From the NCBI GenBank assembly GCA_013360865.1, contig JABWAS010000005.1, forward strand, positions 507-64,506: a stretch of 64,000 nt of DNA, given 5' to 3'. The notes under the pieces were generated by a model. It was not told the origin of the DNA and searched no databases. It saw only the letters and a list, made by a program, of their open reading frames with translations. Within the stretch, counting starts at the first letter, position 1, and each line of letters opens with the position of its first letter. Made by a program: the position numbers and the translations under genes. Positions 889 through 62,835 of this stretch are shown one piece after another. The DNA is from Candidatus Paceibacter sp. GTDB lineage: Bacteria; Patescibacteriota; Minisyncoccia; UBA9983.

Positions 889-952
889 TAATGGCTTGGC
901 CTGAATTTTACGAGTTTTGCGAAGTAAAATTTAGTCGCCAAACATTACCCCG
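889..952 (+). repeat. ~64-bp intergenic repeat element, copy 1; starts at the stop codon of rplB
   Basis: TAATGGCTTGGCCTGAATTTTACGAGTTTTGCGAAGTAAAATTTAGTCGCCAAACATTACC recurs at 1378-1442 (about 97% identical) and in part on the minus strand at 58186-58224. Confidence 0.8.
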
Positions 953-1038
953 CACATAATTTATTAATATAGTTGCGTTGCGGGTAATTAAAAGATAAGG
1001 TAATATTTTGAAAATTATACAGAATTATTAGGCAAACA

Positions 1039-1380
1039 ATGAGCAGAAGTCTTAAAAAAGGTCCGTATATAGATCCCAAATTGCTTAAAAAAATAAGCGT
1101 TCTTAAACCTATGGACGGAACCGTCGTCAAAACCTGGTCGCGGGATTCCCAAATATCGCCGGAAATGATAGGTTTTACTTTCGGCGTTCATAACGGCAAA
1201 GACTTCATCCCCGTCACCATAACCGAAGAAATGATCGGCCACCGGCTCGGTGAGTTCAGTCCGACCAGGAAGTTCGTCAAGCACGGCGGCAAGATGCAGA
1301 GGGAAATAGAAGCCAAGAAAAAAGAGTCGGAAATAGCCGCGGCGCAAGCGGCCAAGGCGGCGCCGGCGGAAAAGAAGTAA
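1039..1380 (+). CDS. rpsS: 30S ribosomal protein S19 with Lys/Ala-rich C-terminal extension
   Basis: [12 protein letters not shown]... typical S19 N-terminus; 113 aa with [20 protein letters not shown] tail. Confidence 0.9.
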
Positions 1381-1442
1381 TGGCTTGGCCTAAATTTTAC
1401 GAGTTTTGCGAAGTAAAATTTAGTCGCCAAACATTACCCGCC
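1378..1442 (+). repeat. ~64-bp intergenic repeat element, copy 2; starts at the stop codon of rpsS
   Basis: 62/64 identical to 889-952; followed by hairpin CCGCCTAAGTTTTTAGGCGG (1436-1458). Confidence 0.8.
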
Positions 1443-1579
1443 TAAGTTTTTAGGCGGATTGACAAAAGAAAAGTTTACAAGCGTTAAAAATTAAGTAGTA
1501 TATTAGAGTTATATTTAAACAAAAACTTGGGCGGGTGCGCAATTTTATAATTGCTCGCAGACTCGCAAACAAAATTGGC

Positions 1580-1915
1580 ATGAAAGAAGTAAAAGCACAA
1601 TTGAATAATTACCGCGCTTCTCCGAGAAAGGTGAGGGTTGTCGCCAATCTCGTCGCCGGCAAAAAAGTCAAAGACGCTCTGACGCAGCTTGCTTTTTTGG
1701 CCAAAAAATCATCAACTCCCGTTGCCAAGCTTATAAAATCTGCTATAAATAACGCGAAGAATAATTTTAAAGTCCAGAACGAAGACTCCTTAAGAGTCAA
1801 AAAGATAACCGTTGACCCCGGCCCGATTCTCAAGAGGATAAGACCCCGGTCAAGAGGCATGGCCAACAGAATCAACAAAAGAACAAGCCGGATAACAGTC
1901 GTTCTTTCCGAATAA
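1580..1915 (+). CDS. rplV: 50S ribosomal protein L22
   Basis: MKEVKAQLNNYRASPRKVRVVANLVAG matches L22 N-terminal region; the start was chosen at the internal Met of the tracked ORF 1535-1915. Confidence 0.85.
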   Translation: MKEVKAQLNNYRASPRKVRVVANLVAGKKVKDALTQLAFLAKKSSTPVAKLIKSAINNAKNNFKVQNEDSLRVKKITVDPGPILKRIRPRSRGMANRINKRTSRITVVLSE

Positions 1916-2996: not shown

Positions 2997-3121
2997 TTTT
3001 TGTAAATCCGAAACAATATCAAAAATTAAAATCCAAATGACAAAAAGTTTAAAATTTAAAATTTAAAAAATTAGAATTTGTTTCGAATTTCGATATTAGG
3101 ATTTAGAATTTAATTAAAGTT

Positions 3122-3731: not shown

Positions 3732-3837
3732 GTTCCCGCGCTTCGCTTGGTCAAAATAAAAAATTAAAAATAAAATCTAAAAATAGATAAGGAAAAATAA
3801 GATTTTAAATTTTAGATATAAGATTTTAGATCGAAAC

Positions 3838-6320: not shown

Positions 6321-6791
6321 ATGAGCAGACCAAGCAAATTCGGCAGAATGGGCGAAAGAGCGAAAAGCGATTTTGACCAAAAAATAATAGACATAAGGCG
6401 CGTGGCCAGAGTCACCAAAGGAGGAAAGCGGTTTAATTTCCGCGTCACCATCGTGGCCGGCAACAGGAAAGGGGAAGTGGGTGTGGGCATGGGCAAAGGA
6501 TCGGACACCTCCATGGCCATAGAAAAAGCTTTCCGCGTGGCCAAGAAGAATATCATCAAGCCTAAGCTTACGAAAGAATTTTCCATCCCTTGCGAGCTTG
6601 AGAACAAATACGCCAGCAGCCGCGTGGTTGTCCGGCCGGCGAAAGGCCGGGGACTGGTGGCCGGAAGCTCAGCCCGGACGGTGCTGGAGTTGGCGGGGAT
6701 AAAAGACGTCAACGCCAAGTTTTATTCCCGAAGCAAAAACAAGGTCAACAACGCCATGGCGGTGCTCGGAGCGCTGGGCAAGCTTTCCTAA
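6321..6791 (+). CDS. rpsE: 30S ribosomal protein S5
   Basis: 156 aa; RVARVTKGGKRFNFRVTIVAGN and GRGLVAG motifs. rplO follows 5 bp later, so no rpmD (L30). Confidence 0.95.
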   Translation: MSRPSKFGRMGERAKSDFDQKIIDIRRVARVTKGGKRFNFRVTIVAGNRKGEVGVGMGKGSDTSMAIEKAFRVAKKNIIKPKLTKEFSIPCELENKYASSRVVVRPAKGRGLVAGSSARTVLELAGIKDVNAKFYSRSKNKVNNAMAVLGALGKLS

Positions 6792-6795
6792 AAAT

Positions 6796-7233
6796 ATGCA
6801 AACAAACCAATTAAAACCGAATACAAGAAACAAGAAGGCCAAATACATCGGGCGCGGCGGCAAAAGGGGTACCTACTCCGGCCGGGGCATCAAAGGCCAG
6901 AAAGCCAGAGCCGGCAGAAAGTTGCGTCCGGAAATAAGGGACCTGATTAAAAAGCTGCCTAAGAAAAGAGGTTATAGATTTACGGTTTTTCAGGAAAAAC
7001 CGGCGGTGCTGAACCTGGAAGTCGTCAATAAGTTTTTCAACGACAACGATCAGGTTAATCCTCAAGCCATGGCGGACAAAGGATTGATTAGGAACATCGG
7101 AGGAAAAATTCCTGCGGTAAAGATTCTCGGCAAGGGAGAAATAACCAAAAAAGTTTCCGTATCCGGTTGTCTGATTTCGGAATCGGCCAAAGCTAAACTG
7201 GAAAAAGCCGGCGCCAAGTATTCCAATGCTTAA
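6796..7233 (+). CDS. rplO: 50S ribosomal protein L15
   Basis: 145 aa; glycine/arginine-rich N-terminus GRGGKRGTYSGRG typical L15. Confidence 0.9.
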   Translation: MQTNQLKPNTRNKKAKYIGRGGKRGTYSGRGIKGQKARAGRKLRPEIRDLIKKLPKKRGYRFTVFQEKPAVLNLEVVNKFFNDNDQVNPQAMADKGLIRNIGGKIPAVKILGKGEITKKVSVSGCLISESAKAKLEKAGAKYSNA

Positions 7234-14780: not shown

Positions 14781-14875
14781 GCATAAAGCACAATTTGTGT
14801 TAAAAGAACGATAGAAGAAATCCTGGTGGATTTCTGAAAATTGCACATTTACAACCCAAAAGGAGGTGAATTATG
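14781..14875 (+). repeat. left ~97-bp inverted repeat carrying 5'UTR hairpin, RBS (AAGGAGGTG) and ATG of the radical SAM gene
   Basis: Reverse complement of 20717-20815 is about 97% identical (2 substitutions, 2 single-nt indels). Contains hairpin GAAATCCTGGTGGATTTC. Confidence 0.85.
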
Positions 14876-16096
14876 GAATTCAAGAAGGAATACTTCGCGG
14901 TAGCCAATTCGGAACCACGTGTCACGATCAACGGTATGACTACGGGACGAGAATTTTCTGTGCGCGAATATACATTCGGAGTTCTTGTGCCGGATAGCAA
15001 TCATCCGCTCTCATGCGTCAGTGTGTCTAATAGCTCGCTGAGCATTGATTTGTGGATTGGATGTTCTTGGCAGTGCAGATACTGCCACGTTCAAGACACC
15101 AATCAAGATCTTGCCGATCAGGGCATGATGCCGAAAAAACCACGACGGCGCAATCAGTTTACCGTGGACCAAATCCTCGATGAACTGGTCAAGCATCCGT
15201 TCTTCATCGCTGATGAGACAATCATCAGCATCGGAACGGCAAGCACCGAGCCATTCGCCCCTGCTGTCGTAGACAGCACGTTCGAGATTATGGACGGATT
15301 CGTCCGGCGCGGTCTGCGGAATCCTTTCTGGATCGTCACTAAGGGTGGCGTTCCTAAAGGGAGAAAACTTGACTTCGCCCGCATCTCGAATGCGACGCGC
15401 GGCTTGATGCTGTCGCTGTGCTGGGCAGACAATCCTGACACGATTGAGCCAGCGCATAACAACCGCTTTCTCAATGCTGAGGAAGCCAAGGAAGCAGGAG
15501 CCACCATTGCGTGGTACATGCGACCGATCGTTCCTGAGTGGAGCGGTAATCGGGACAGAATTGAGATGATGATGCTGTGGGTGAAAAAACACTACGGCGA
15601 AGTCATCGATATGATCGTTCCGGGTGGTCTGCGCTGGACGGAAGGTATCGAGAACGGACTGGCGGAGATTCACAAGCTCCCCATGCCTGACATCCCTCGG
15701 GATGACAATGTGAAATCGTTGCCGCAGGAGTTGGTGGATTCCATCTTCTCACTGAGCGCCGAACACTTTCCTGGTATCCCCGTCTATCTCAAGTCATCAT
15801 GCGCCCTTACTCGGATGCTCAGGATCCCGAGCATCACTTCAGTGCAGGTTTTCGCACGGCCAGGATGCGAGGCATCTCGCTGTCCTCTGACCCAACGGAG
15901 AATCTGCGCTCAGGGTTCGGCTTACAACATGACGGCCGAACGAGTACAGGGCATCTTGGATGACCTCGGGATTCCGGCTCATGTAGTGAGTTGGGATATC
16001 AACCACGGACTTGTTACTCACCCCGAGATGAGCAAGTTCACCTACGCAGTCAGGCAGACTGTATTCAAACATCTGGCAATGGGAGGTCCCACATGA
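14873..16096 (+). CDS. radical SAM protein, SplB/COG1533-like
   Basis: CX3CX2C motif in context IGCSWQCRYCHV near the N-terminus. 407 aa; more GC-rich (by eye) than the flanking genome. Stop overlaps the next ATG (ATGA). Confidence 0.65.
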   Translation: MEFKKEYFAVANSEPRVTINGMTTGREFSVREYTFGVLVPDSNHPLSCVSVSNSSLSIDLWIGCSWQCRYCHVQDTNQDLADQGMMPKKPRRRNQFTVDQILDELVKHPFFIADETIISIGTASTEPFAPAVVDSTFEIMDGFVRRGLRNPFWIVTKGGVPKGRKLDFARISNATRGLMLSLCWADNPDTIEPAHNNRFLNAEEAKEAGATIAWYMRPIVPEWSGNRDRIEMMMLWVKKHYGEVIDMIVPGGLRWTEGIENGLAEIHKLPMPDIPRDDNVKSLPQELVDSIFSLSAEHFPGIPVYLKSSCALTRMLRIPSITSVQVFARPGCEASRCPLTQRRICAQGSAYNMTAERVQGILDDLGIPAHVVSWDINHGLVTHPEMSKFTYAVRQTVFKHLAMGGPT

Positions 16097-17211
16097 AGAC
16101 GTATGATGAAATCAAACGCCACTTCGGGACCTTTGGTTTCCAGTGGCAAGAAAGTGTTCCGATTGTAAGCACCAATCCTAAGCTCCTGTTCAACATCTCT
16201 GGCGGTGTCGTGTTTGAGGATACGATCTCTCATGGAGTAATCCCTGAAAAGACCCGTGTCGTTTCGGTTCAGACATGCCTGCGAACGGACGGGTGGGAGA
16301 AGATTGGTTTGTCGGGAAGGCACCACCTTGCATTCGACATGCTCGGCCACTTCTCCCTCTACGAGGGCAAGGAGCAAGAGGTTAAGGAAGCAATAATCGA
16401 GAGTGCCTGGCGTTATCTGACGGTGTGTGTGGGGATCAGTCCTGCCACGCTGTCAGCAACAGTGCATCCGCAAGATGCAACATCGCAGAGAATCTGGGAA
16501 AGGTTGGGTGCCAAAACTGTCAGCAATGACGGAAATGTCACTTTTACTCCGACTCGGAACCGATGCGGTGTTCGCACGGAGATCGTCTGGAGAAATCCGG
16601 ACACGAGTAAGTCAATCGAGCTTTGGAACTTGGTCTTTACCGAGTTTCTGGGCGAGACGCTTTTCGAGTCTCCTCTGGAGAAGATTGCCGCCGATTCTGG
16701 TGCAAGTATTGATCGTATCGTCACGGCAGTCGAATGCTGTAGTAGCGATTATGAAAACACCAATTGGAAAGGCGTGATCGAATCTATCAGTGAGCGATCC
16801 GAGGTAAAGGATCGAGCCATCATGTGCCGCCTCGCAGATCTCGGCAAAGCGGCGGTGCTTCTGGTATCGCAAGGACTTCGACCTGGAAACAAAGCGGCGG
16901 ATTATGTCCTTCGGAAACTCATCCGAGAGGCTTTCATCCTCTGCCGACAGATCTCCATCTCATTTGATGAATTTGTCGTGATATCAGGAAATCAATGGGC
17001 CTCGGTTGATGCGGTGCAAACTGTGTTTGCCGAGGAGGTGTCAAAGTTCGAGAAAGGGCTTGAGCGCGGGAGAAAGGAATATACAAAATTCGTCTCTCGC
17101 AGGAATGGTCGCTTGACTGAATCAGACATCAAGTATCTAACATCCACATTCGGATTTCCGAAGGCTCTTATCGAGCTTGAGGAGTCGAAACGGAACAAGG
17201 AGGCACTATGA
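16093..17211 (+). CDS. alanyl-tRNA synthetase catalytic-domain paralog 1 (truncated, no editing/C-Ala domains)
   Basis: NPKLLFNISGGVVFED, VQTCLRTDGWEKIGLSGRHHLAFDMLGHFSLYEG and C-terminal TSTFGFPKALIE parallel AlaRS class II catalytic-core motifs. ATGA overlap with upstream rSAM gene and downstream ORF. Confidence 0.6.
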   Translation: MKTYDEIKRHFGTFGFQWQESVPIVSTNPKLLFNISGGVVFEDTISHGVIPEKTRVVSVQTCLRTDGWEKIGLSGRHHLAFDMLGHFSLYEGKEQEVKEAIIESAWRYLTVCVGISPATLSATVHPQDATSQRIWERLGAKTVSNDGNVTFTPTRNRCGVRTEIVWRNPDTSKSIELWNLVFTEFLGETLFESPLEKIAADSGASIDRIVTAVECCSSDYENTNWKGVIESISERSEVKDRAIMCRLADLGKAAVLLVSQGLRPGNKAADYVLRKLIREAFILCRQISISFDEFVVISGNQWASVDAVQTVFAEEVSKFEKGLERGRKEYTKFVSRRNGRLTESDIKYLTSTFGFPKALIELEESKRNKEAL

Positions 17212-18686: not shown

Positions 18687-19979
18687 TCACTTCTTCGGTC
18701 GGCGTGATACATCCCGATGTTCCTCGATGAGTTTGAGAAACTCAGCCTTCGGAAAAGGGACGCCGTGACGAGCACAGAATTCCTCCAGAAGGTCTTCGGG
18801 AATGCCCATGCCGGTTTTCAAAGTGAATGCGTGTTGTGCATCCAACTCCTTGGCCGCGACGATCTTGTCGAGATACTTTCTGCTGCGATGCATCAGCTTT
18901 TCGAAGCCTTCACGCTCCTCGCTGAGCCAGTGTGCGATAACAGATTTCTGACGAAAGGTCATGTCCTTGTTATCGATCACTTCACTGAGAGAGTCTGCCC
19001 ATTCTTGAAGAATAGTCAGATTGATCCCTCGCAGGAAGATGCCGATCATCGCTCGCCGAAGCGCGCGACGGAGAAGGTATCCCTCCCGAGTATTGCTCGG
19101 AACAATACCCTCTCGAATCATCAGGATTGAGGTCTTGATGTGGTCGAGAATGACCCTTGTCCATGCTGTATCACCAATCCGCTGATTGATGAGTTGATAG
19201 GACGGGTCGTACTGATCGATCTCGTGGATTGAAGCGCGGTCTTGCAGGATCATGGCGAAGCGCTCAAGACCTGCGCCCGTATCCACACACTTCATCGGGA
19301 GAGGGGAAAAAAATCCCTGCTCGTCTTTGTAGTATTGCATGAACACTCCGGCATTCCAGATCTCGATATGCCGCCCAGGTACCAGCACGTCGTCCGTTTC
19401 TTTCTCGGCGAATTCCTCGCCTCGATCGAAGAAAACCTCCGTGCAGGGACCGCATGGGCCACTGGTTCCCGCCGGACCCCAGAAGTTGTCTACTGGCGGT
19501 CGGCCAATGATTCGATCTCGTGGCAGGAATTTCTCCCAGATGCGAGCCGATTCTTCGTCGCTTGGCACACCCGGCAGACTTTCGTCAGCCATGAATACCG
19601 TAGCAGAGAGGCGGTCGACTGGAATCCCGAAACCCTCGGTGATGAGTTCAAAGGCGAGTTCGATAGCTCGTTCCTTAAAATAATCTCCGAATGACCACGA
19701 CCCCATCATACGGAAGTTTGTTCCGTGATAGGAATCGCCGACGCTTTCGACGTCCACGAACCTGATACAGTCCTGCATGTTCGTCAGACGCGGGTATGGA
19801 GGCTTCGCCTGGCCCGTGAAGCAGGGCTTGAGCGGAGCCATGCCCGAGTTGATGAACATGAGGGTCGGATCATTCCTTGGAATAATCCCAGACGGCTGGA
19901 TGAATTGATGATCGTGGTTGAGGAAATGTTCCAGAAATGTCTGGCGTACCTCCTCGGTGGTTTTGTACGGTGGTGTCAC
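18687..19979 (-). CDS. alanyl-tRNA synthetase catalytic-domain paralog 2 (truncated, 430 aa)
   Basis: RNDPTLMFINSGMAPLKP, WSFGDYFKERAIELAFE, GPCGPCTEVFFDRGEE, IEIWNAGVFMQYY and TGAGLERFAMILQ reproduce the AlaRS aminoacylation-core motifs. Lacks editing and C-Ala domains. Confidence 0.75.
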   Translation of the reverse strand: MTPPYKTTEEVRQTFLEHFLNHDHQFIQPSGIIPRNDPTLMFINSGMAPLKPCFTGQAKPPYPRLTNMQDCIRFVDVESVGDSYHGTNFRMMGSWSFGDYFKERAIELAFELITEGFGIPVDRLSATVFMADESLPGVPSDEESARIWEKFLPRDRIIGRPPVDNFWGPAGTSGPCGPCTEVFFDRGEEFAEKETDDVLVPGRHIEIWNAGVFMQYYKDEQGFFSPLPMKCVDTGAGLERFAMILQDRASIHEIDQYDPSYQLINQRIGDTAWTRVILDHIKTSILMIREGIVPSNTREGYLLRRALRRAMIGIFLRGINLTILQEWADSLSEVIDNKDMTFRQKSVIAHWLSEEREGFEKLMHRSRKYLDKIVAAKELDAQHAFTLKTGMGIPEDLLEEFCARHGVPFPKAEFLKLIEEHRDVSRRPKK

Positions 19980-19981
19980 TG

Positions 19982-20719
19982 TTAGCCTCCTTTTTTGAGA
20001 TAGTGAATGTTTTGTGTTATCTGATCTTCTGTTGTCATACCAATAACAACAGATGTGCCGAGAGTAAGTGCGTTTTGTGTAATCATCTCGGCCGAGTGCG
20101 GGCCAGTGAGCAACTTCCCCTGTTTAAACAAACTTCTCAAGAGAATCTCCTTTTTAAGATCGAGTAGATATGGGAGCTGTTGAAGCACCCAAGTTTGCTC
20201 AGTGTTGAAAGGAGCCGCAATCACGTCGATGTGCGACAAAACCGTTTCAGCGACGGAACATGAGAAATTGTCGGGCAGGGAAATTCCTACGCGCTTGACT
20301 ATGCCTTCATACTTAAGCCCGTTAAGGCATTCAAGGATTGCTATTGATTCTGACGACCACGTGGGTAGCCAGTTGTGCAGAAGTACCGCGTCGATAGAAG
20401 ATCGCCGTAGCCTTTCCAATGATTCGTACACGCTTTGATAGATACCATCTCGTGAGTAGAATCTTTGGATCAGTTCAGGTGCTTCCAGATTCGGTTTTGA
20501 TGCTGCCGGAATTTTGGTCACAATGACCGCATCTTCCGGTAGACATGTACCAAGCATCTCCTCGACTTTGCCTCCACCATAGACGGCCGCCGTATCGAAA
20601 CGACGAATACCGGAGCTGATGGCGAAAAGCAGAAGCGATTCAATGTAGGCGGGGGACAAGTTTTTGAACTGCCCTCCAAGTTGCCACGTACCGAAGTAGA
20701 GGCGATTAAACCATGCCAT
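19982..20719 (-). CDS. aldo/keto reductase family oxidoreductase
   Basis: FGTWQLGG and FDTAAVYGGGKVEEMLG motifs; 245 aa. Start codon lies inside the right inverted repeat. 2-nt gap to the downstream AlaRS-like gene. Confidence 0.7.
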   Translation of the reverse strand: MAWFNRLYFGTWQLGGQFKNLSPAYIESLLLFAISSGIRRFDTAAVYGGGKVEEMLGTCLPEDAVIVTKIPAASKPNLEAPELIQRFYSRDGIYQSVYESLERLRRSSIDAVLLHNWLPTWSSESIAILECLNGLKYEGIVKRVGISLPDNFSCSVAETVLSHIDVIAAPFNTEQTWVLQQLPYLLDLKKEILLRSLFKQGKLLTGPHSAEMITQNALTLGTSVVIGMTTEDQITQNIHYLKKGG

Positions 20720-20815
20720 AATTCACCTCCTTTTGGGGTTGTAAATGTGCAATTTTCAGAAATCCACCAGGATTTCTTCTATTGTTCTTTTAACACAAAT
20801 TTGTACTTTATGCAA
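20717..20815 (-). repeat. right ~97-bp inverted repeat carrying RBS and ATG of the aldo/keto reductase gene
   Basis: Reverse complement matches 14781-14875 at about 97% identity. Confidence 0.85.
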
Positions 20816-30939: not shown

Positions 30940-30964
30940 TTTTTGGAAGACGAGTAACTCACAA

Positions 30965-31010
30965 AAACAATCCCGTCCGCCAGCTGGCGGACGGGATTGT
31001 TTTTGTTTTT
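30965..31010 (+). terminator. rho-independent terminator directly after rplK
   Basis: AAAAACAATCCCGTCCGCCAGCTGGCGGACGGGATTGTTTTTGTTTTT: 16-bp stem, T-run. No rplA follows. Confidence 0.8.
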
Positions 31011-41012: not shown

Positions 41013-41049
41013 GCCGCCATTATCAAGGTCGGACCTTGATAATGGCGGC
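41013..41049 (+). repeat. REP-like perfect palindrome, family 1, copy 1 (18-bp stem)
   Basis: GCCGCCATTATCAAGGTC-G-GACCTTGATAATGGCGGC; core ATCAAGGTCGGACCTTGAT recurs at 41233-41253 and 41745-41765. Confidence 0.85.
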
Positions 41050-41071
41050 AAAGGGTTTAAAATAATAGGTA

Positions 41072-41761
41072 ATGCAAAGAAGATCAGCTTTTTCCGTTGG
41101 TGAGTATTACCATATCTATAATCGCGGCACAGACAAAAGAGAAATTTTTCTGGATAAGCCCGATTATTTAAGGTTTATTGTTCTGCTCTATATTTCTAAT
41201 AACGTTGACGCTGTGCACGTCAGCAATCTTAAATATCAAGGTCGGACCTTGATGGGAATTTTAAATATAGATAAAAAAGACTCTCTTGTTGATATTGGCG
41301 CCTATTGCCTCATGCCAAACCATTTTCATATTCTTATTAAAGAAAAAATAGATAATGGAATTAGCCAGTTTATCAGAAAGTTATCTACCGGTTACTCAAT
41401 GTATTTTAACAAAAGGTATGAAAGAACGGGGAACTTGTTTCAGGGTAAATTTAAATCTATGCATGTTGATAATGACCAGTATCTTAAGTATCTATTTGCT
41501 TATATACACCTTAACCCAATTAAAATAATTGAACCTGGGTGGAAAGAGTTAGGAATTAGAGAAAAAGACAAGGCAGAATCATTTTTAAAAGATTATGAAT
41601 TTTCAAGCTATATGGATTATGACGGCAACGGCACGGAAAGGGTAGAAGCTAAAATAGTAAAAAAAGAATCTTTTCCCGAATATTTTTTAACGGCAAAAGA
41701 TTTTAATGACATGATAAAAGATTGGTTGTATTATAAAGATACTATCAAGGTCGGACCTTGA
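41072..41761 (+). mobile_element. IS200/IS605-family Y1 (HUH) transposase, REP-associated tyrosine transposase (RAYT)-like
   Basis: HUH motif CLMPNHFHILIKE and downstream catalytic Tyr region (YSMYFNKRYERTGNLFQGKF). The gene is flanked by, and internally contains, the family-1 palindrome. Confidence 0.7.
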
Positions 41762-41765
41762 TAAG
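41745..41765 (+). repeat. REP-like palindrome, family 1, copy 3, overlapping the RAYT stop codon
   Basis: TATCAAGGTCGGACCTTGATA; codes the C-terminal IKVGP-stop. Confidence 0.8.
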
Positions 41766-57683: not shown

Positions 57684-57749
57684 AAGGTGATTGTTGCCGG
57701 AAACTTGGAAGCTAAACTTCCAATTGGAAGTTTAGCTTCCAAGTTTGAA

Positions 57750-58088: not shown

Positions 58089-58185
58089 ATGCCAATTTTG
58101 TTTGCGAGTCTGCGAGCAATTTACAAAATTGCGCACCCCGCACATAATCTGCTAATAATTCTGTATAATTTTCAAAATATTACCT

Positions 58186-58224
58186 TAACTTCGCAAAACT
58201 CGTAAAATTCAGGCCAAGCCATTA
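58186..58224 (-). repeat. partial third copy of the ribosomal-intergenic repeat element (minus strand), beginning at the rpmI stop codon
   Basis: Minus-strand TAATGGCTTGGCCTGAATTTTACGAGTTTTGCGAAGT identical to the first 37 nt of copies at 889 and 1378. Confidence 0.75.
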
Positions 58225-58932: not shown

Positions 58933-58997
58933 TAAAGAGTATTCTACTTATTTTTTAATATTTTGCAAGCTCCCAGAGGTTGATAAAGACAATAGCC

Positions 58998-59024
58998 CAA
59001 TGTCAAGGTTGAACCTTGACATTG
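58998..59024 (+). repeat. REP-like perfect palindrome, family 2, copy 1
   Basis: CAATGTCAAGGTT-G-AACCTTGACATTG; shares the CAAGGT..ACCTTG core with family 1. Confidence 0.8.
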
Positions 59025-59078: not shown

Positions 59079-59870
59079 CTATTGACGTCGAATGTCAATA
59101 GAATCTTTTATATCAAACTTGCCCACCTTTGTACGCTTAAGTCCCAGTAAAACCGCTCCGGTTTTTAGGTTTTGTCCCAGTTTGTGAGCGATGGATCGGA
59201 CATATGTTCCGCTGGAGCATTTTATTTTTATTCTCGCCACCCAAAATCCTTCTTGTTTTAAGCGATAGCAAATTTTAGGAAGGATTTTTTCTTGCCATTG
59301 TGAGAGTATTTTTTCCTGACGGAAGTCGCCTTGGACGACTTTTATTTTTTTGATAATTTTTTCCAGAAGCTTTTCCGAGCCGACTTTCTTCAGCTCCAGC
59401 AACTTAATTTCATAAATCTCAATCTCTTTTTCCGGGATTTTTATTTCTTTGAGCTTTCCTTTCCGCGCCCATTCAAAAAGCGGCTTGCCTTTGATTTTGT
59501 AAGAGGAGTAGGGCGGAAGCGGCATTTTATTTTTTCCCAGAAATTTTCCCAACCCAATGTCAAGGTTGAACCTTGACATTGGCAGCGGCTGGCGAATTTT
59601 TTGAGGCAGTCCTAAAATGTCGTAAGTATCCGTTTTAAAGCCGAACAAAATTTCGGCTTCGTATTCTTTATCCAGTTTGAGGTATTTTTCTTTTTGCTGG
59701 ATGGCGTCGCCGACCAGCAAAATCAAAACACCTTCCGCCAAAGGGTCCAGCCGTCCGGCGTAAGTTACTTTTTCTTTTTCCGTTTCCGGATGTTTTTGCC
59801 TCAAAATTTTTACCGCGTCCAAAGGCGAAATTCCGACCGGTTTATAGACATTGAAATTTTTTCCCTTCAT
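59079..59870 (-). CDS. truB: tRNA pseudouridine(55) synthase TruB
   Basis: YAGRLDPLAEGVLILLVGDA catalytic-Asp motif. Start chosen at MKGKNF; the upstream part of the tracked 392-aa ORF overlaps obg and is spurious. Carries an in-frame family-2 palindrome at 59555-59581. Confidence 0.8.
   Translation of the reverse strand: MKGKNFNVYKPVGISPLDAVKILRQKHPETEKEKVTYAGRLDPLAEGVLILLVGDAIQQKEKYLKLDKEYEAEILFGFKTDTYDILGLPQKIRQPLPMSRFNLDIGLGKFLGKNKMPLPPYSSYKIKGKPLFEWARKGKLKEIKIPEKEIEIYEIKLLELKKVGSEKLLEKIIKKIKVVQGDFRQEKILSQWQEKILPKICYRLKQEGFWVARIKIKCSSGTYVRSIAHKLGQNLKTGAVLLGLKRTKVGKFDIKDSIDIRRQ
59555..59581 (+). repeat. REP-like palindrome, family 2, copy 2, inside the truB coding sequence
   Basis: Identical 29-nt CCCAATGTCAAGGTTGAACCTTGACATTG; on the truB strand it encodes MSRFNLDIG in frame. 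Confidence 0.8.
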
Positions 59871-59882
59871 AATGCGAGTATT

Positions 59883-60863
59883 ATGCTTATAGACGATGTT
59901 ACAATCAAAGTCAAAGCTGGCAAGGGCGGCAAGGGCGGGGTTTACTTCAACAAAAACCTGATGACGCTGGGGCCGACGGGCGGCAGGGGAGGCAACGGCG
60001 GCAGCGTATATATGGAAGGCGTGTCCGACCTGGGCGCGCTCAAGCAATTTCGCTACAAAAAAGACATTGTCGCCAAAGACGGCGAGAACGGCAAGAAACA
60101 GCTCAACGACGGCACCGCCGCCGAGGATGTTGTTTTGAAAGTTCCCGTCGGAACGGTGATTCATAATCTGGATAAAGGCGCTGACCAGGAAATAACGAAA
60201 ATCGGAGAAAGGGTTTTGGTGGCCGAGGGCGGATTCGGCGGGCATGGCAATTGGCATTTCCGCGGCAGCAAAAATACCAGTCCGAGGCAGTGCCAGCCAG
60301 GATTGCCCGGAGAAGGTTTTACTTTGCGGCTGGAGCTAAAGCTCATCGCTGACGTGGGCTTGATCGGTTTTCCCAACGCCGGAAAGTCCAGTCTGCTCAA
60401 TGAACTGACTGCCGCCAAGAGCAAGGTGGCCAATTATGACTTCACCACTCTGGAGCCGCACCTCGGAGTCTATTACGATCTGGTTTTGGCCGACATCCCC
60501 GGACTTATTGAAGGCGCTTCCGCCGGAAAAGGGCTAGGTATAAAATTCCTGCGCCATGTTGAGCGCACCAAAGTTTTGTTCCACCTCATCTCGGCGGAAT
60601 CGGAGGATCCGCTTAAAGATTATTACATCGTCGTCAAAGAACTGATGACCTACAACGAGGCGCTTGTTAAAAAACCGGAATATATTTTCCTGGCCAAAAG
60701 CGACTTGGTTGACGAGAAAACTTTAAAGCAAAAAATGATGGAGCTTAGAAAGGCCGGCAAGCCGGTCAAAGCCGTCTCCATCCACGATCCGGCCAGCATG
60801 GAGGAGGTGAAGAAAATTCTGAATAAGTTGATGGAAGAGAAAACAAGTTCAGCGAATATTTAA
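59883..60863 (+). CDS. obg: GTPase Obg
   Basis: N-terminal Gly-rich Obg fold (KAGKGGKGGV, GGRGGNGG) and G-domain GFPNAGKSSLLN, DIPGLIEGAS. Confidence 0.9.
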   Translation: MLIDDVTIKVKAGKGGKGGVYFNKNLMTLGPTGGRGGNGGSVYMEGVSDLGALKQFRYKKDIVAKDGENGKKQLNDGTAAEDVVLKVPVGTVIHNLDKGADQEITKIGERVLVAEGGFGGHGNWHFRGSKNTSPRQCQPGLPGEGFTLRLELKLIADVGLIGFPNAGKSSLLNELTAAKSKVANYDFTTLEPHLGVYYDLVLADIPGLIEGASAGKGLGIKFLRHVERTKVLFHLISAESEDPLKDYYIVVKELMTYNEALVKKPEYIFLAKSDLVDEKTLKQKMMELRKAGKPVKAVSIHDPASMEEVKKILNKLMEEKTSSANI

Positions 60864-61674: not shown

Positions 61675-62835
61675 TTAAAATGAAAACGGCGCCCTTTTGT
61701 TTTTCAAAACCACCTCAACCTCTTTCGCGTTTTTGCAGGCCATTAGCTTGATTCGTAATTCTTTAGCGCCGATGAAGCCGGAGACGTATGATTTGAAGTG
61801 CTTTTTCATCACGTCAAAATTTTTATTTTTATTTAATTTTTCAAATAATTTAGTGTGTTCAAGAAGGACAGATATCCGTGTCGAAAATTTTGCCGACCTT
61901 CCAGGATGAAAACAACCAGGCAGGACTGCAAAATTTTCGGCATTGGAAAACCGACCTGCCATGGTGACCGGCTTTGCGGGCTCCTGGCACGGTCGGTTTT
62001 CTGCAAACAGCCACGGATTGCCGAAAACCGCCCGGCCGATCATTACTCCGTCAGTGCCGTATTGTTCCGCTTTTTCATAAGCTTCCGCGACGCTTTGGAC
62101 ATCGCCGTTGCCCAGTATCAAAGTTTTGTCCGGTTTTGAACCGCAAAATTCATCTCTGATTTTCACCGCTTCGGCGACGATGTCCCATCGGGCTGGGACA
62201 AGCGACATTTCTTTTTTTGTCCGGGCGTGGATGGTGATGGCCGCCGGCTCGCATTCTAGAAGAGCAATCAGCCATTTTTTTAATTCTTTTTTGTCGTATC
62301 GGTTGTAGCCGATTCTGGTTTTGACGGAAACGGGCAAACGGCCCGCTCCACGCTTCGTCTCCAAAATAATTTTTTGCGCCAGTCGGGGGTTATTTATTAA
62401 AGATGCCCCGGCACTCTGCTTGATAACTTTTTTGTCCGGGCAACCCATGTTGATATCTATGCCGTCAAAACCGAGTTTTTTTATCAGCTTGGCTGACTCG
62501 TAAAAATTTTCCGGTTTGGCGCCGAAAATTTGCGCCACTATCGGCTTTTCTTTTTTAGAAAATTTCAACAGTGGCAGGAGATTTTTTCTGCCTTCAGAGC
62601 ACAGCCCATCGCAGGAAACAAATTCCGTAAAAGTGATGTAGGGCGCGCCATTTTTTGTTTTACTGTACTTCGCGATAATCCGGCGGAATGCCGCGTCGGT
62701 GACGTCCGCCATCGGCGCCAACGCCAAAATCGGCCACTTTGGCGGATTGTTTTTACGCTGAGCTTGTCGAATTGTTTTCCAGAAACCTTTTGTCATAACG
62801 TCCTTAAAAATATAGTTAATTTGGCATTTTGGCAA
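61675..62835 (-). CDS. tRNA-dihydrouridine synthase (Dus family)
   Basis: LAPMADVTDAAFR FMN-binding N-terminal motif and TIM-barrel pattern (ITIHARTK); 386 aa as tracked. Confidence 0.8.
   Translation of the reverse strand: MPKCQINYIFKDVMTKGFWKTIRQAQRKNNPPKWPILALAPMADVTDAAFRRIIAKYSKTKNGAPYITFTEFVSCDGLCSEGRKNLLPLLKFSKKEKPIVAQIFGAKPENFYESAKLIKKLGFDGIDINMGCPDKKVIKQSAGASLINNPRLAQKIILETKRGAGRLPVSVKTRIGYNRYDKKELKKWLIALLECEPAAITIHARTKKEMSLVPARWDIVAEAVKIRDEFCGSKPDKTLILGNGDVQSVAEAYEKAEQYGTDGVMIGRAVFGNPWLFAENRPCQEPAKPVTMAGRFSNAENFAVLPGCFHPGRSAKFSTRISVLLEHTKLFEKLNKNKNFDVMKKHFKSYVSGFIGAKELRIKLMACKNAKEVEVVLKNKRAPFSF

Follow-up and report, generated by a model that had tools for sequence, protein, structure and literature searches.

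How does one stretch of non-coding DNA come to fill several gaps between ribosomal-protein genes, beginning on the stop codon of one gene and ending at the start codon of the next? The question is raised by a 64,000-nt stretch of Candidatus Paceibacter sp. (assembly GCA_013360865.1, contig JABWAS010000005.1), here called the window, from a member of the Candidate Phyla Radiation (CPR; Patescibacteria), bacteria with tiny, tightly packed genomes that are usually considered repeat-poor. A sequence-only reading of this DNA had noticed a conserved element of about 64 bp that follows rplB and rpsS and, in part, rpmI. We describe it here as a non-coding element of ~205 nt, composed in order of a hairpin (P1), a long-range helix (P2) and a second hairpin (P3). 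We are fairly confident that it stands for a new family of structured, spreading intercistronic elements and not for a ribosomal-protein regulator. The reading that we favour, with a probability of roughly 0.6, is that of a selfish, copy-spreading element at the stop-start junctions of operons, whose fold would make the insertion tolerable.

The near-identity after rplB and rpsS holds at 889-952 and 1378-1441 (98%), and a repeat search of the window returned it as a 64-nt direct repeat on the plus strand (887-950 and 1376-1439, 98% identical with a single G/A difference). Its 37-nt core, TAATGGCTTGGCCTRAATTTTACGAGTTTTGCGAAGT, occurs exactly three times, at 889-925 (+), 1378-1414 (+) and 58188-58224 (-), against an expected count of 0.00 from 100 shuffles of the window; the third occurrence is the partial minus-strand copy that had been placed after rpmI. 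The TAA at its start serves rpsS and rpmI as their stop codon; after rplB it lies directly 3' of the native TAG, as had also been noted. The proposed length did not stand, however, as the 64 nt make up the 5' hairpin P1 of a longer unit that fills the spacer from stop to start. The remainder of the spacer is repeated too, 992-1031 matching 58152-58191 (-) and 1549-1581 matching 58089-58121 (-), the latter match stopping at or beside the next ATG.

P1 rises from the foot TAATG/CATTA through TTGGC/GCCAA, a variable stem of 8-10 bp and an internal loop (5'-GA/3'-GAA) to a short apical helix. The hairpin TTTTAC-N12-GTAAAA that had been proposed inside the repeat exists, as no more than the top of this imperfect hairpin of 21 bp with its foot at TAATG/CATTA. 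P2 consists of 10-21 pairs, directly adjoins both P1 and P3 and encloses ~70 nt of variable AT-rich sequence, and the 3' strand of P3 runs into the downstream ATG. Together with the copies from other genomes described below, this layout is common to all 18 copies that have a P1 5' end. P1 measures 55-70 nt across copies, P3 ~45 nt, and the P2 domain, with an interior that is unalignable between subfamilies, 98-109 nt in 15 of 17 copies. Of the 15 complete copies, 13 have a total length of 200-216 nt and two are longer, at 240-241 nt.

Gene identities around the copies were assigned by Pfam, the Ribosomal_L2 match being made on the gene of a sister strain (L001; GCA_023150695.1) that is 99.7% identical to the window and reaches 8.9 kb further upstream. 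Going by the names under which its closest S19 relatives are listed, the organism is of the Parcubacteria/Paceibacteria type within the CPR. Complete in the window is copy B, on the plus strand between rpsS (S19; 1039..1380) and rplV (L22; 1580..1915). It opens with the rpsS stop codon (TAA, 1378-1380) as its first three bases and runs through a 59-nt P1 (1378..1436, the second repeat of the sequence-only reading), the left P2 arm CCCGCCTAAGTTTTT (1437..1451), the variable AT-rich interior (1452..1520) and the right P2 arm AAAAACTTGGGCGGG (1521..1535) to a P3 of the form TGCGCAATTTT...AAAATTGGCA (1536..1582), whose 3' end is the rplV start codon (ATG, 1580-1582). Copy A, also on the plus strand, follows the native stop (TAG, 886-888) of rplB (L2; 55..888; Pfam Ribosomal_L2). 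It keeps a 59-nt P1, TAATGG...CATTA (889..947, the first repeat of that reading), the left P2 arm CCCCGCACATAAT (948..960) and the remaining P2 interior (961..1038), of which 992-1031 is shared with copy C, and GCAAACA (1032-1038) stands immediately 5' of the rpsS ATG. The partner of its left P2 arm is deleted in the window strain and kept in the sister strain. A presence/absence difference of 59 nt inside copy A (window 1031/1032, L001 9935-9993) marks this deletion, which took out the right P2 arm and P3. Because the L001 spacer between rplB and rpsS is 59 nt longer and holds a complete unit, copy A is a deletion derivative. Copy C, on the minus strand, is a second one. It begins with the stop codon (TAA, 58224-58222) of rpmI (L35; 58222..58413, -) and retains 37 nt from the 5' half of P1 (58188..58224), the P1 3' half and the left P2 arm having been deleted. 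A remnant of the P2 interior (58149-58187), the right P2 arm ATTATGTGCGGGG (58136-58148) and P3 (58086..58135) follow, the end ...TTGGCAT being succeeded by the start codon (ATG, 58088-58086) of rplT (L20; 57750..58088, -). A fourth copy lies in L001 after rpsG, where the entire S7>EF-G spacer (upstream>downstream gene) is 90% identical to the S19>L22 spacer.

The borders of the element are set to the base. Among the 18 copies with a P1 5' end, the TAA is the in-frame stop of a long upstream open reading frame (ORF) in 14, directly follows a native stop in two and lies 5 nt past one in another (locus L025), the last copy sitting at a contig end. The dinucleotide TA precedes all 18 copies, although it was no part of the search pattern. 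On the right, P3 abuts the downstream ATG in most copies; the left flank is always TA and the right flank is G or ATG. Either an AT duplication or an insertion 3' of TAAT without duplication fits most copies, the L2>S19 copy of L001 excepted. All 20 copies with known flanks have the same orientation as their flanking genes; in a further locus (L016) the upstream gene runs off the contig and the downstream gene is unidentified. Replication strand was considered as a cause of this orientation and rejected, since copy C follows its genes on the minus strand while the GC skew is positive across the whole window.

The element folds well. P1 alone reaches -22.4 and -22.3 kcal/mol in the copies at 889-952 and 1378-1441 (z -4.2 and -4.0) and ranges from -22 to -36 kcal/mol across the folded copies (z -4.0 to -5.2), and the whole of copy B reaches -56.5 kcal/mol (z -3.8). 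P3 is weaker than P1 (z -0.8 to -4.0). Single-sequence folding gives P1-P2-P3 in 11 of the 15 complete copies, and the other four, termed class-1, instead close the whole element through ATGGCU/AGCCAU; either fold brings the ends of the element together. Covariation among the copies, which the sequence-only reading had suggested analysing across related genomes, turned out to be strong. On an alignment of 13 distinct copies, from which the centre of the P2 interior was removed, RNAalifold predicted 37 pairs, 20 of them with compensatory double changes. Our own structure of 36 pairs, 20 of which show double changes, keeps 98.1% of cells paired versus 77.3% in shuffled alignments (none of 500 shuffles as high). 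Its covariation score is 0.565, where shuffled alignments score 0.152 and slid controls 0.06-0.09, and covariation extends to 11 of the 12 pairs of P2.

What distinguishes the paralogous S7>EF-G and S19>L22 copies is a set of compensated changes in P1 together with an insertion that lengthens the apical stem, and a T/C difference between the window and its sister strain turns a G.U pair of P1 into G-C. In a variant found by hidden Markov model (HMM), TGGCTCGGCC...GCCGAATATTA, the P1 ends are changed in a compensated way. P3 has two registers, one being TGGCGAUUUUUA/UAAAAAUC(A)GCCA and the other UGC(G)CAAUUUU/AAAAUUGGCA, and its foot shows a G-C/C-G swap (8 versus 5 copies) as well as the variants TGAA/TTCA in L020 and TCAT/ATGA in L022. 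Cells with G.U outnumber those with C.A (11 versus 4), which mildly suggests folding of the sense strand, be it in the form of RNA or of single-stranded DNA. A kissing contact between the P1 apex and the P3 loop, promising in L011 (10 of 11 bases), was rejected, as cognate pairs did no better than non-cognate ones (-11.2 vs -11.8 kcal/mol). Of the earlier proposal of a functional RNA motif, the structural part is thus borne out by the strong covariation, whereas its specific form as a ribosomal-protein binding or autoregulatory site is not.

An exact-pattern scan of GTDB representative genomes gave no match and a gapped pattern was needed, which fixed only the two P1 ends and found 18 loci, five of them among GTDB species representatives and 13 among JGI metagenomes. 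Three of these 18 are chance matches in Proteobacteria (L008, identical to L024, and L012) and L009 is doubtful; the remaining loci are CPR contigs, for example Parcubacteria GW2011_GWA2_49_9 and a metagenome-assembled genome labelled Saccharibacteria. With the diverged and partial copies contributed by profile searches, the family comes to 21 copies, carried by 15 distinct contigs from diverse CPR bacteria, and it is patchy across this group. No match to the element was found in viral contigs, phage records or plasmids. Thirteen copies lie at junctions of ribosomal or translation genes, namely S7>EF-G, L2>S19, S19>L22, L35>L20, L36>S13 (twice), S13>S11 (four times), RpoA>L17 (twice) and S8>L6. 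Seven are at non-ribosomal junctions, namely PilB>PilT (twice), an unidentified gene>PilB, MraY>FtsW, FtsX>PyrG, YceG>an ATP-cone protein and PilM>a 188-aa protein, and one copy has unknown flanks. All four copies of the window genome, over 73 kb, flank ribosomal or translation genes. The specific association with ribosomal-protein genes that these copies had suggested nevertheless dissolves in the wider census, with seven copies at pilus, cell-wall, cell-division, pyrG and ATP-cone junctions: the element is enriched at translation-gene junctions, not specific to them.

That the element spreads follows from three observations. In the closest relative found (L002), whose flanking genes have 85-90% nucleotide identity, both sites are empty, with spacers of ~16 nt (L2>S19) and 3 nt (S19>L22), and the alignment breaks exactly at both elements. 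No copy was found in 11 related S10/spc loci (nhmmer, E<10; S19 identity 80-95%), which amount to about nine distinct ones, L003-L005 and L026/L027 being near-duplicates. Copies within one genome are 90-100% identical, the two copies of L010 being identical and those of the window 90-98% alike. The suggestion that a miniature element beginning at gene stops has been spreading recently is therefore well founded. This insertion polymorphism is accompanied by decay products, truncated and composite copies, among them the 59-nt deletion in copy A, the internal deletion in copy C and a copy in L020 without P1. In Parcubacteria GW2011_GWA2_49_9 (L011, ~3915-3690, -), rpmJ passes after its first nine codons (MRVKASVKK) into the stem of a copy of the element without the conserved 5' strand, and L36 appears, from the sequence, truncated or fused in this organism.

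How would such an element enter and stay in an essential operon? We infer a transposition-type mobility, for which the simplest candidate target would be TAATG. Insertion of an element GGCT...(G/C)CAT on the 3' side of TAAT at a TAATG-type junction would keep the stop codon (TAA) and regenerate the start codon (AT + G), and it would agree with nearly all borders. Such a target fits copy C and the L025 copy, in which the end ...GGCAT is directly followed by ATG, as well as two copies behind a native stop, and it fits the L2>S19 copy of L001 given one substitution. The window has 80 TAATG sites, with no unoccupied TAATG stop/start overlap left. In a related but unlikely reading, the folded RNA or single-stranded DNA might guide its own insertion at TAATG through pairing with CATTA. 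Once inserted, the fold might act on translation. With P1, P2 and P3 abutting, the stop and start codons would meet at one junction, and a ribosome terminating at UAA would open the conserved 13-nt 5' strand of P1 and thereby come to lie beside the AUG at the P3 foot. Neighbouring genes would then stay translationally coupled and the insertion would be tolerable inside essential operons, which would account for the survival there of stop-adjacent, sense-oriented insertions alone. We hold this coupling mechanism as such only tentatively. Still less likely is an outright RNA device, in which the fold loops out 200 nt and hands the UAA-terminating ribosome to the P3-foot AUG by termination-reinitiation, as a bacterial analogue of ribosome shunting; if it were true, a mobile element could live within essential, translationally coupled operons. 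Shine-Dalgarno sequences are uninformative in this matter, most genes of this operon being without one.

Several points weigh against the selfish-element reading or parts of it. As the search pattern fixed both P1 ends, the invariance of those 22 bases in copies outside this genome is partly a matter of ascertainment, and part of the covariation seen between paralogous repeats could stem from their having different master copies instead of from selection in place. Overlaps of the -1 type (TAATG) are rare, at ~4 of 155 crudely called junctions. The empty S19>L22 site of L002 reads TAA-AAC-ATG, where simple insertion gives no flush borders unless the ancestor had TAATG, so the target model needs either a different ancestral spacer or spacer replacement. 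For the element we found neither a transposase partner nor a target-site duplication, nor any terminal inverted repeat of general occurrence. Long terminal inverted repeats as a general feature, P1 against the reverse complement of P3, were tried and rejected: when the first 62 nt were locally aligned with the last 50 nt in reverse complement, only two of 13 copies are significant (z 2.9 and 5.1) and the other 11 stay at z <= 1.7, and a 6-nt ATGGCT/AGCCAT end match is confined to class-1 copies. The shortened copies A and C precede the essential genes rpsS and rplT and are evidently viable, so an intact fold is dispensable for downstream expression. These truncated copies weaken the coupling idea and fit plain selfish DNA, and a processing role is also live.

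That role would make the element a host-useful cassette for mRNA processing or stability, with P2 as an RNase III-type site, P1 guarding the upstream 3' end and P3 the downstream 5' end, which would uncouple the stoichiometry of the adjoining cistrons as is reported for transcripts of REP, ERIC and Correia repeats. P2 is indeed a conserved helix of 11-21 bp between two stable hairpins, the element is always sense-oriented within operons, and known small repeats act in this way when co-transcribed (reviewed in PMC2229807). We still think it unlikely, given a patchy and recent distribution, the tolerance of truncated copies, and borders that such a cassette would not call for: a protective 3' hairpin needs no stop codon, and a 5' hairpin containing AUG is poor for independent initiation. 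Nor is the element an intrinsic terminator, which would be a GC-rich hairpin with a U tract behind it: no terminator-like site was called on the sense strand over 889-1582, where CCCGCC follows P1. A boxA/Nus-factor site in P3 was also tried and dropped, its best 8-9 of 12 matches being no better than shuffles. Another proposal concerns movement and is compatible with the selfish-element reading. The element might be single-strand DNA moved in trans by a Y1/HUH transposase, as an IS200/IS605-derived PATE or in a REP/BIME/REPIN-like manner, P1 and P3 being the enzyme-bound subterminal hairpins and the internal CATTA guiding insertion beside TAATG. In its favour are the subterminal hairpins at the two ends, a strict specificity for strand and orientation, the apparent lack of target duplication and the pairing of a constant TAAT/TAATG, at the left border, with a sequence inside the element; the window also encodes a Y1 transposase (41072-41761) that resembles the REP-associated tyrosine transposases (RAYTs). 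The link of the element to this enzyme is circumstantial, however, since the gene is flanked by a different palindrome (TATCAAGGTCGGACCTTGATAA) and its NCBIfam score lies under the cut-off, and no transposase homologue occurs in the other element-bearing loci. The guide of IS608 lies 5' of the hairpin foot, whereas the pairing partner here lies 3' of it, and orientation tracks genes and not replication direction, though an asymmetric target would do likewise. We regard Y1-type mobilisation as possible but rather unlikely.

Three further explanations fare worse. A mobile promoter cassette, in which a sigma-70-type promoter in the AT-rich P2 interior gives the downstream gene its own transcript, is improbable. 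Promoter-like hexamers, TTGACA and TTTACA-16-TAGTAT, do stand in copy B (TTTACA-16-TAGTAT at 1474-1501) and in the S7>EF-G copy. On the sense strand, 9 of 12 matches are attained in 6 interiors out of 17, versus 2.6 +/- 1.5 in shuffles and one of 17 on the antisense strand; yet this enrichment is weak, 11 of 17 interiors are without a match, position and sequence are unconserved, and a promoter has no need of P1, P2 or flush codon borders. A promoter is not a general property of the element. A ribosomal-protein autoregulatory or leader RNA, or another cis-regulator of translation genes, is largely refuted by the non-ribosomal contexts, and we give it very little credence. It could point to the conserved 5'-GA/3'-GAA internal loop of P1 and to the genes flanked by four of four copies in this genome and by 13 of 21 overall, but the same element stands at the PilB>PilT, MraY>FtsW, FtsX>PyrG, YceG>ATP-cone and PilM junctions, and its at least eight different ribosomal-protein junctions plus seven non-ribosomal ones fit no known autoregulator. 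It is missing from the same ribosomal-protein junctions in the 11 related loci and matches no Rfam leader: searched with the Rfam 15 covariance models, group I introns and small ribozymes among them, neither the window and its two spacer regions nor 13 further loci gave a match that passed the gathering thresholds, and the lowest E-values over element regions (0.026-10) belonged to unrelated eukaryotic families. Least credible of all is an encoded small protein, which is already refuted by frame shifts among copies. Stop and start overlap in TAATG in the classic manner, and the sense mini-ORF MAWPEFYEF... that starts in it has four conserved initial codons (MAWP). But the frame is shifted by P1 lengths of 55, 57, 58, 62 and 68 nt, the reading frame of the S7 copy closes after 10 codons and those of others anywhere from the P1 apex to P3, and substitutions preserve base pairs and not codons. 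The same holds for an antisense ORF, which the sequence-only reading had rightly taken as probably incidental, since P1 lengths of 55-70 nt break any frame.

The Y1/HUH transposase-like gene of the window (41072-41761, +) deserves description in its own right. It encodes 229 aa with the motifs NHFHIL and YIHLNP, matches Pfam Y1_Tnp at 7e-11, and scores 48.7 bits with the NCBIfam model of REP-associated tyrosine transposases, whose cut-off is 80. The palindrome TATCAAGGTCGGACCTTGAT(AA/GG) occurs at 41021, 41234 and 41743, that is before, within and at the end of the gene (41021-41764), an arrangement like that of a REPtron in a CPR genome. We found no literature report of RAYT transposases in CPR, in a search of incomplete coverage. 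A related 29-nt palindrome, CCCAATGTCAAGGTTGAACCTTGACATTG, lies at 58996-59024, just downstream of an ORF with a TruB domain (59079-60257, -), and at 59553-59581, inside that ORF. Among all loci fetched, the palindrome family TCAAGGTNGNACCTTGA occurs in the window only. Two perfect 46-nt palindromes with 23-nt arms and no loop stand at 30961-31006 and 57701-57746, the latter between an ORF for a 398-aa membrane protein and rplT. An inverted repeat of ~88 nt (14792-14879 / 20713-20801, 97% identical), which includes a Shine-Dalgarno sequence and start codon (AAAGGAGGTGAATTATGG), brackets a 5.9-kb segment with two opposed ORFs carrying alanyl-tRNA-synthetase class II domains (15991-17211, +; 18687-19979, -). 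Beyond the window, a related Parcubacteria contig (L030, 1545-2912) carries a reverse transcriptase gene (RVT_1) beside a bAvd gene, a diversity-generating retroelement adjoining type IV pilus genes.

Other hairpin families occupy ribosomal-protein spacers as well, at 2997-3121 and 3732-3837 of the window and at 1697-1849, 6585-6687, 7015-7126 and 7697-7846 of L001. A CGAAAT/ATTTCG hairpin type is found at S12>S7, L3>L4 and L16>S17, a GGCTAATCCCTAGTGGCTAA type at EF-Tu>S10 and L6>L18, and a TTAGGAATTAACTTGTAG type at S10>L3. In the S10/spc operon of L007 (JGI Ga0104751_1003037), hairpin spacers of 80-137 nt from four repeat families stand at nearly every ribosomal-protein junction; its S19>L22 spacer also starts TAATGGCTTG, yet it is a different element. 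An imperfect hairpin at 61879-61942 of the window, TTTTGCCGACCTTCCAGG...CCAGGCAGGACTGCAAAATTTT, resembles the 'fam4' spacer hairpins of L007 (S19>L22, S5>L15). Simpler hairpin-repeat families also occur in the ribosomal-protein spacers of L029. Since this genome, L007 and L029 all carry other families, hairpin-repeat colonisation of intercistronic space is a broader trait of some Parcubacteria.

In genomes held to be poor in repeats, a structured 205-nt element and simpler hairpin families have thus invaded some of the most conserved operons, those of ribosomal proteins, RNA polymerase alpha, cell division and pilus genes, and the placement between stop and start codons is base-precise. If the fold keeps genes translationally coupled, selfish DNA would here have a novel means of hiding within essential operons, and the element would offer a natural module with which to link cistrons; if the element were a processing or promoter cassette, it would change the view of operon expression in these uncultured bacteria. 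In practice, it inflates the 'intergenic' space of ribosomal-protein operons that are used in phylogenomic binning, it could serve as a strain-level marker, and its conserved core is a ready search pattern for a family absent from Rfam. The element is undescribed in Rfam 15 and in the searchable literature, whose coverage was incomplete.

Compared with known repeat systems, the lifestyle of the element reads, by analogy, as that of MITEs (miniature transposable elements with inverted repeats), REPINs or PATEs, without classical terminal inverted repeats. The repetitive extragenic palindromes (REPs) and their BIME and REPIN assemblies are likewise non-coding hairpin repeats in intergenic gaps, often just past stop codons, which can be built as two hairpins plus a linker and are co-transcribed with operons; they are thought to be mobilised in trans by RAYT (TnpA-REP) (PMC8266576). 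A REP is a palindrome of 20-50 nt with a conserved GTAG in front of it (PMC8266576), and REPs occur in hundreds of copies and both orientations, whereas the present element has ~205 nt and three helices, with a long-range helix replacing the plain linker and no GTAG, and lies in one orientation relative to genes, flush with stop and start codons. A cognate RAYT flanked by the same repeats (a REPtron) was not found, the gene at 41072-41761 being flanked by TATCAAGGTCGGACCTTGATAA and not by P1/P3.

The PATEs of the IS200/IS605 family share with the element the subterminal hairpins at both ends, the strand specificity, the apparent lack of target duplication and a short fixed left-border sequence that pairs with an internal one (PMC3201880). 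IS608 inserts 3' of a tetranucleotide target without duplication, the target being chosen by pairing with an internal guide (PMC3201880; PMC5934647). P1 and P3 are present in all intact copies at a fixed orientation, as hairpins at both ends of one strand, and in every case TAAT(G) stands before the element or at its start, with the internal CATTA as its pairing partner; this pairing shows no variation among the copies, and its geometry is unlike that of IS608. The element further differs from PATEs in having no associated tnpA/tnpB, in the position of CATTA 3' and not 5' of the hairpin, and in the large conserved internal helix P2. Like the bacterial MITEs (Correia/NEMIS, ERIC, RUP, Caulobacter CIR), which are small, AT-rich and non-autonomous, form stem-loops as RNA and affect, or are tolerated in, operon transcripts, it is short (~205 nt), non-coding (no conserved frame), multicopy (4 copies in 73 kb) and presence/absence-polymorphic (empty sites in the relative). 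CIR transcripts fold as separate 5' and 3' stem-loops, as the element does (PMC2229807). Classical MITEs have terminal inverted repeats, TA termini, target duplications and either orientation, whereas here 11 of 13 copies are without terminal inverted repeats, no duplication is evident and orientation is fixed.

In placement, intercistronic and at stop/start borders, the element is like the mycobacterial interspersed repetitive units (MIRUs). Supply et al. in 1997 reportedly described these as intercistronic operon repeats whose ends overlap the upstream stop and downstream start codons, an arrangement said to have been proposed to preserve translational coupling, with tandem units of 46-101 nt and a small bridging ORF. 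The present element is instead a single 205-nt unit that would bridge the gap by RNA or DNA helices, and no spanning ORF of the MIRU type was found, the ORF opened by TAATG ending variably (P1 apex, P2 arm, P2 interior or P3) with shifts of frame. Structure-dependent translational coupling is familiar from operons and RNA phages, where, as would hold for the element, a downstream start codon lies in a helix near the upstream stop and a terminating ribosome would open this helix. In those cases native coding sequence pairs over short distances, whereas here an inserted module of 200 nt would supply the pairing. The element thus departs from what defines the known systems, namely the GTAG and short palindrome of REPs, a cognate RAYT, the terminal inverted repeats with an evident duplication of MITEs and the bridging ORF of MIRUs. 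Its own mark is the combination of three helices that covary, a length that is fixed, one orientation only and borders placed to the base at the stop and start codons.

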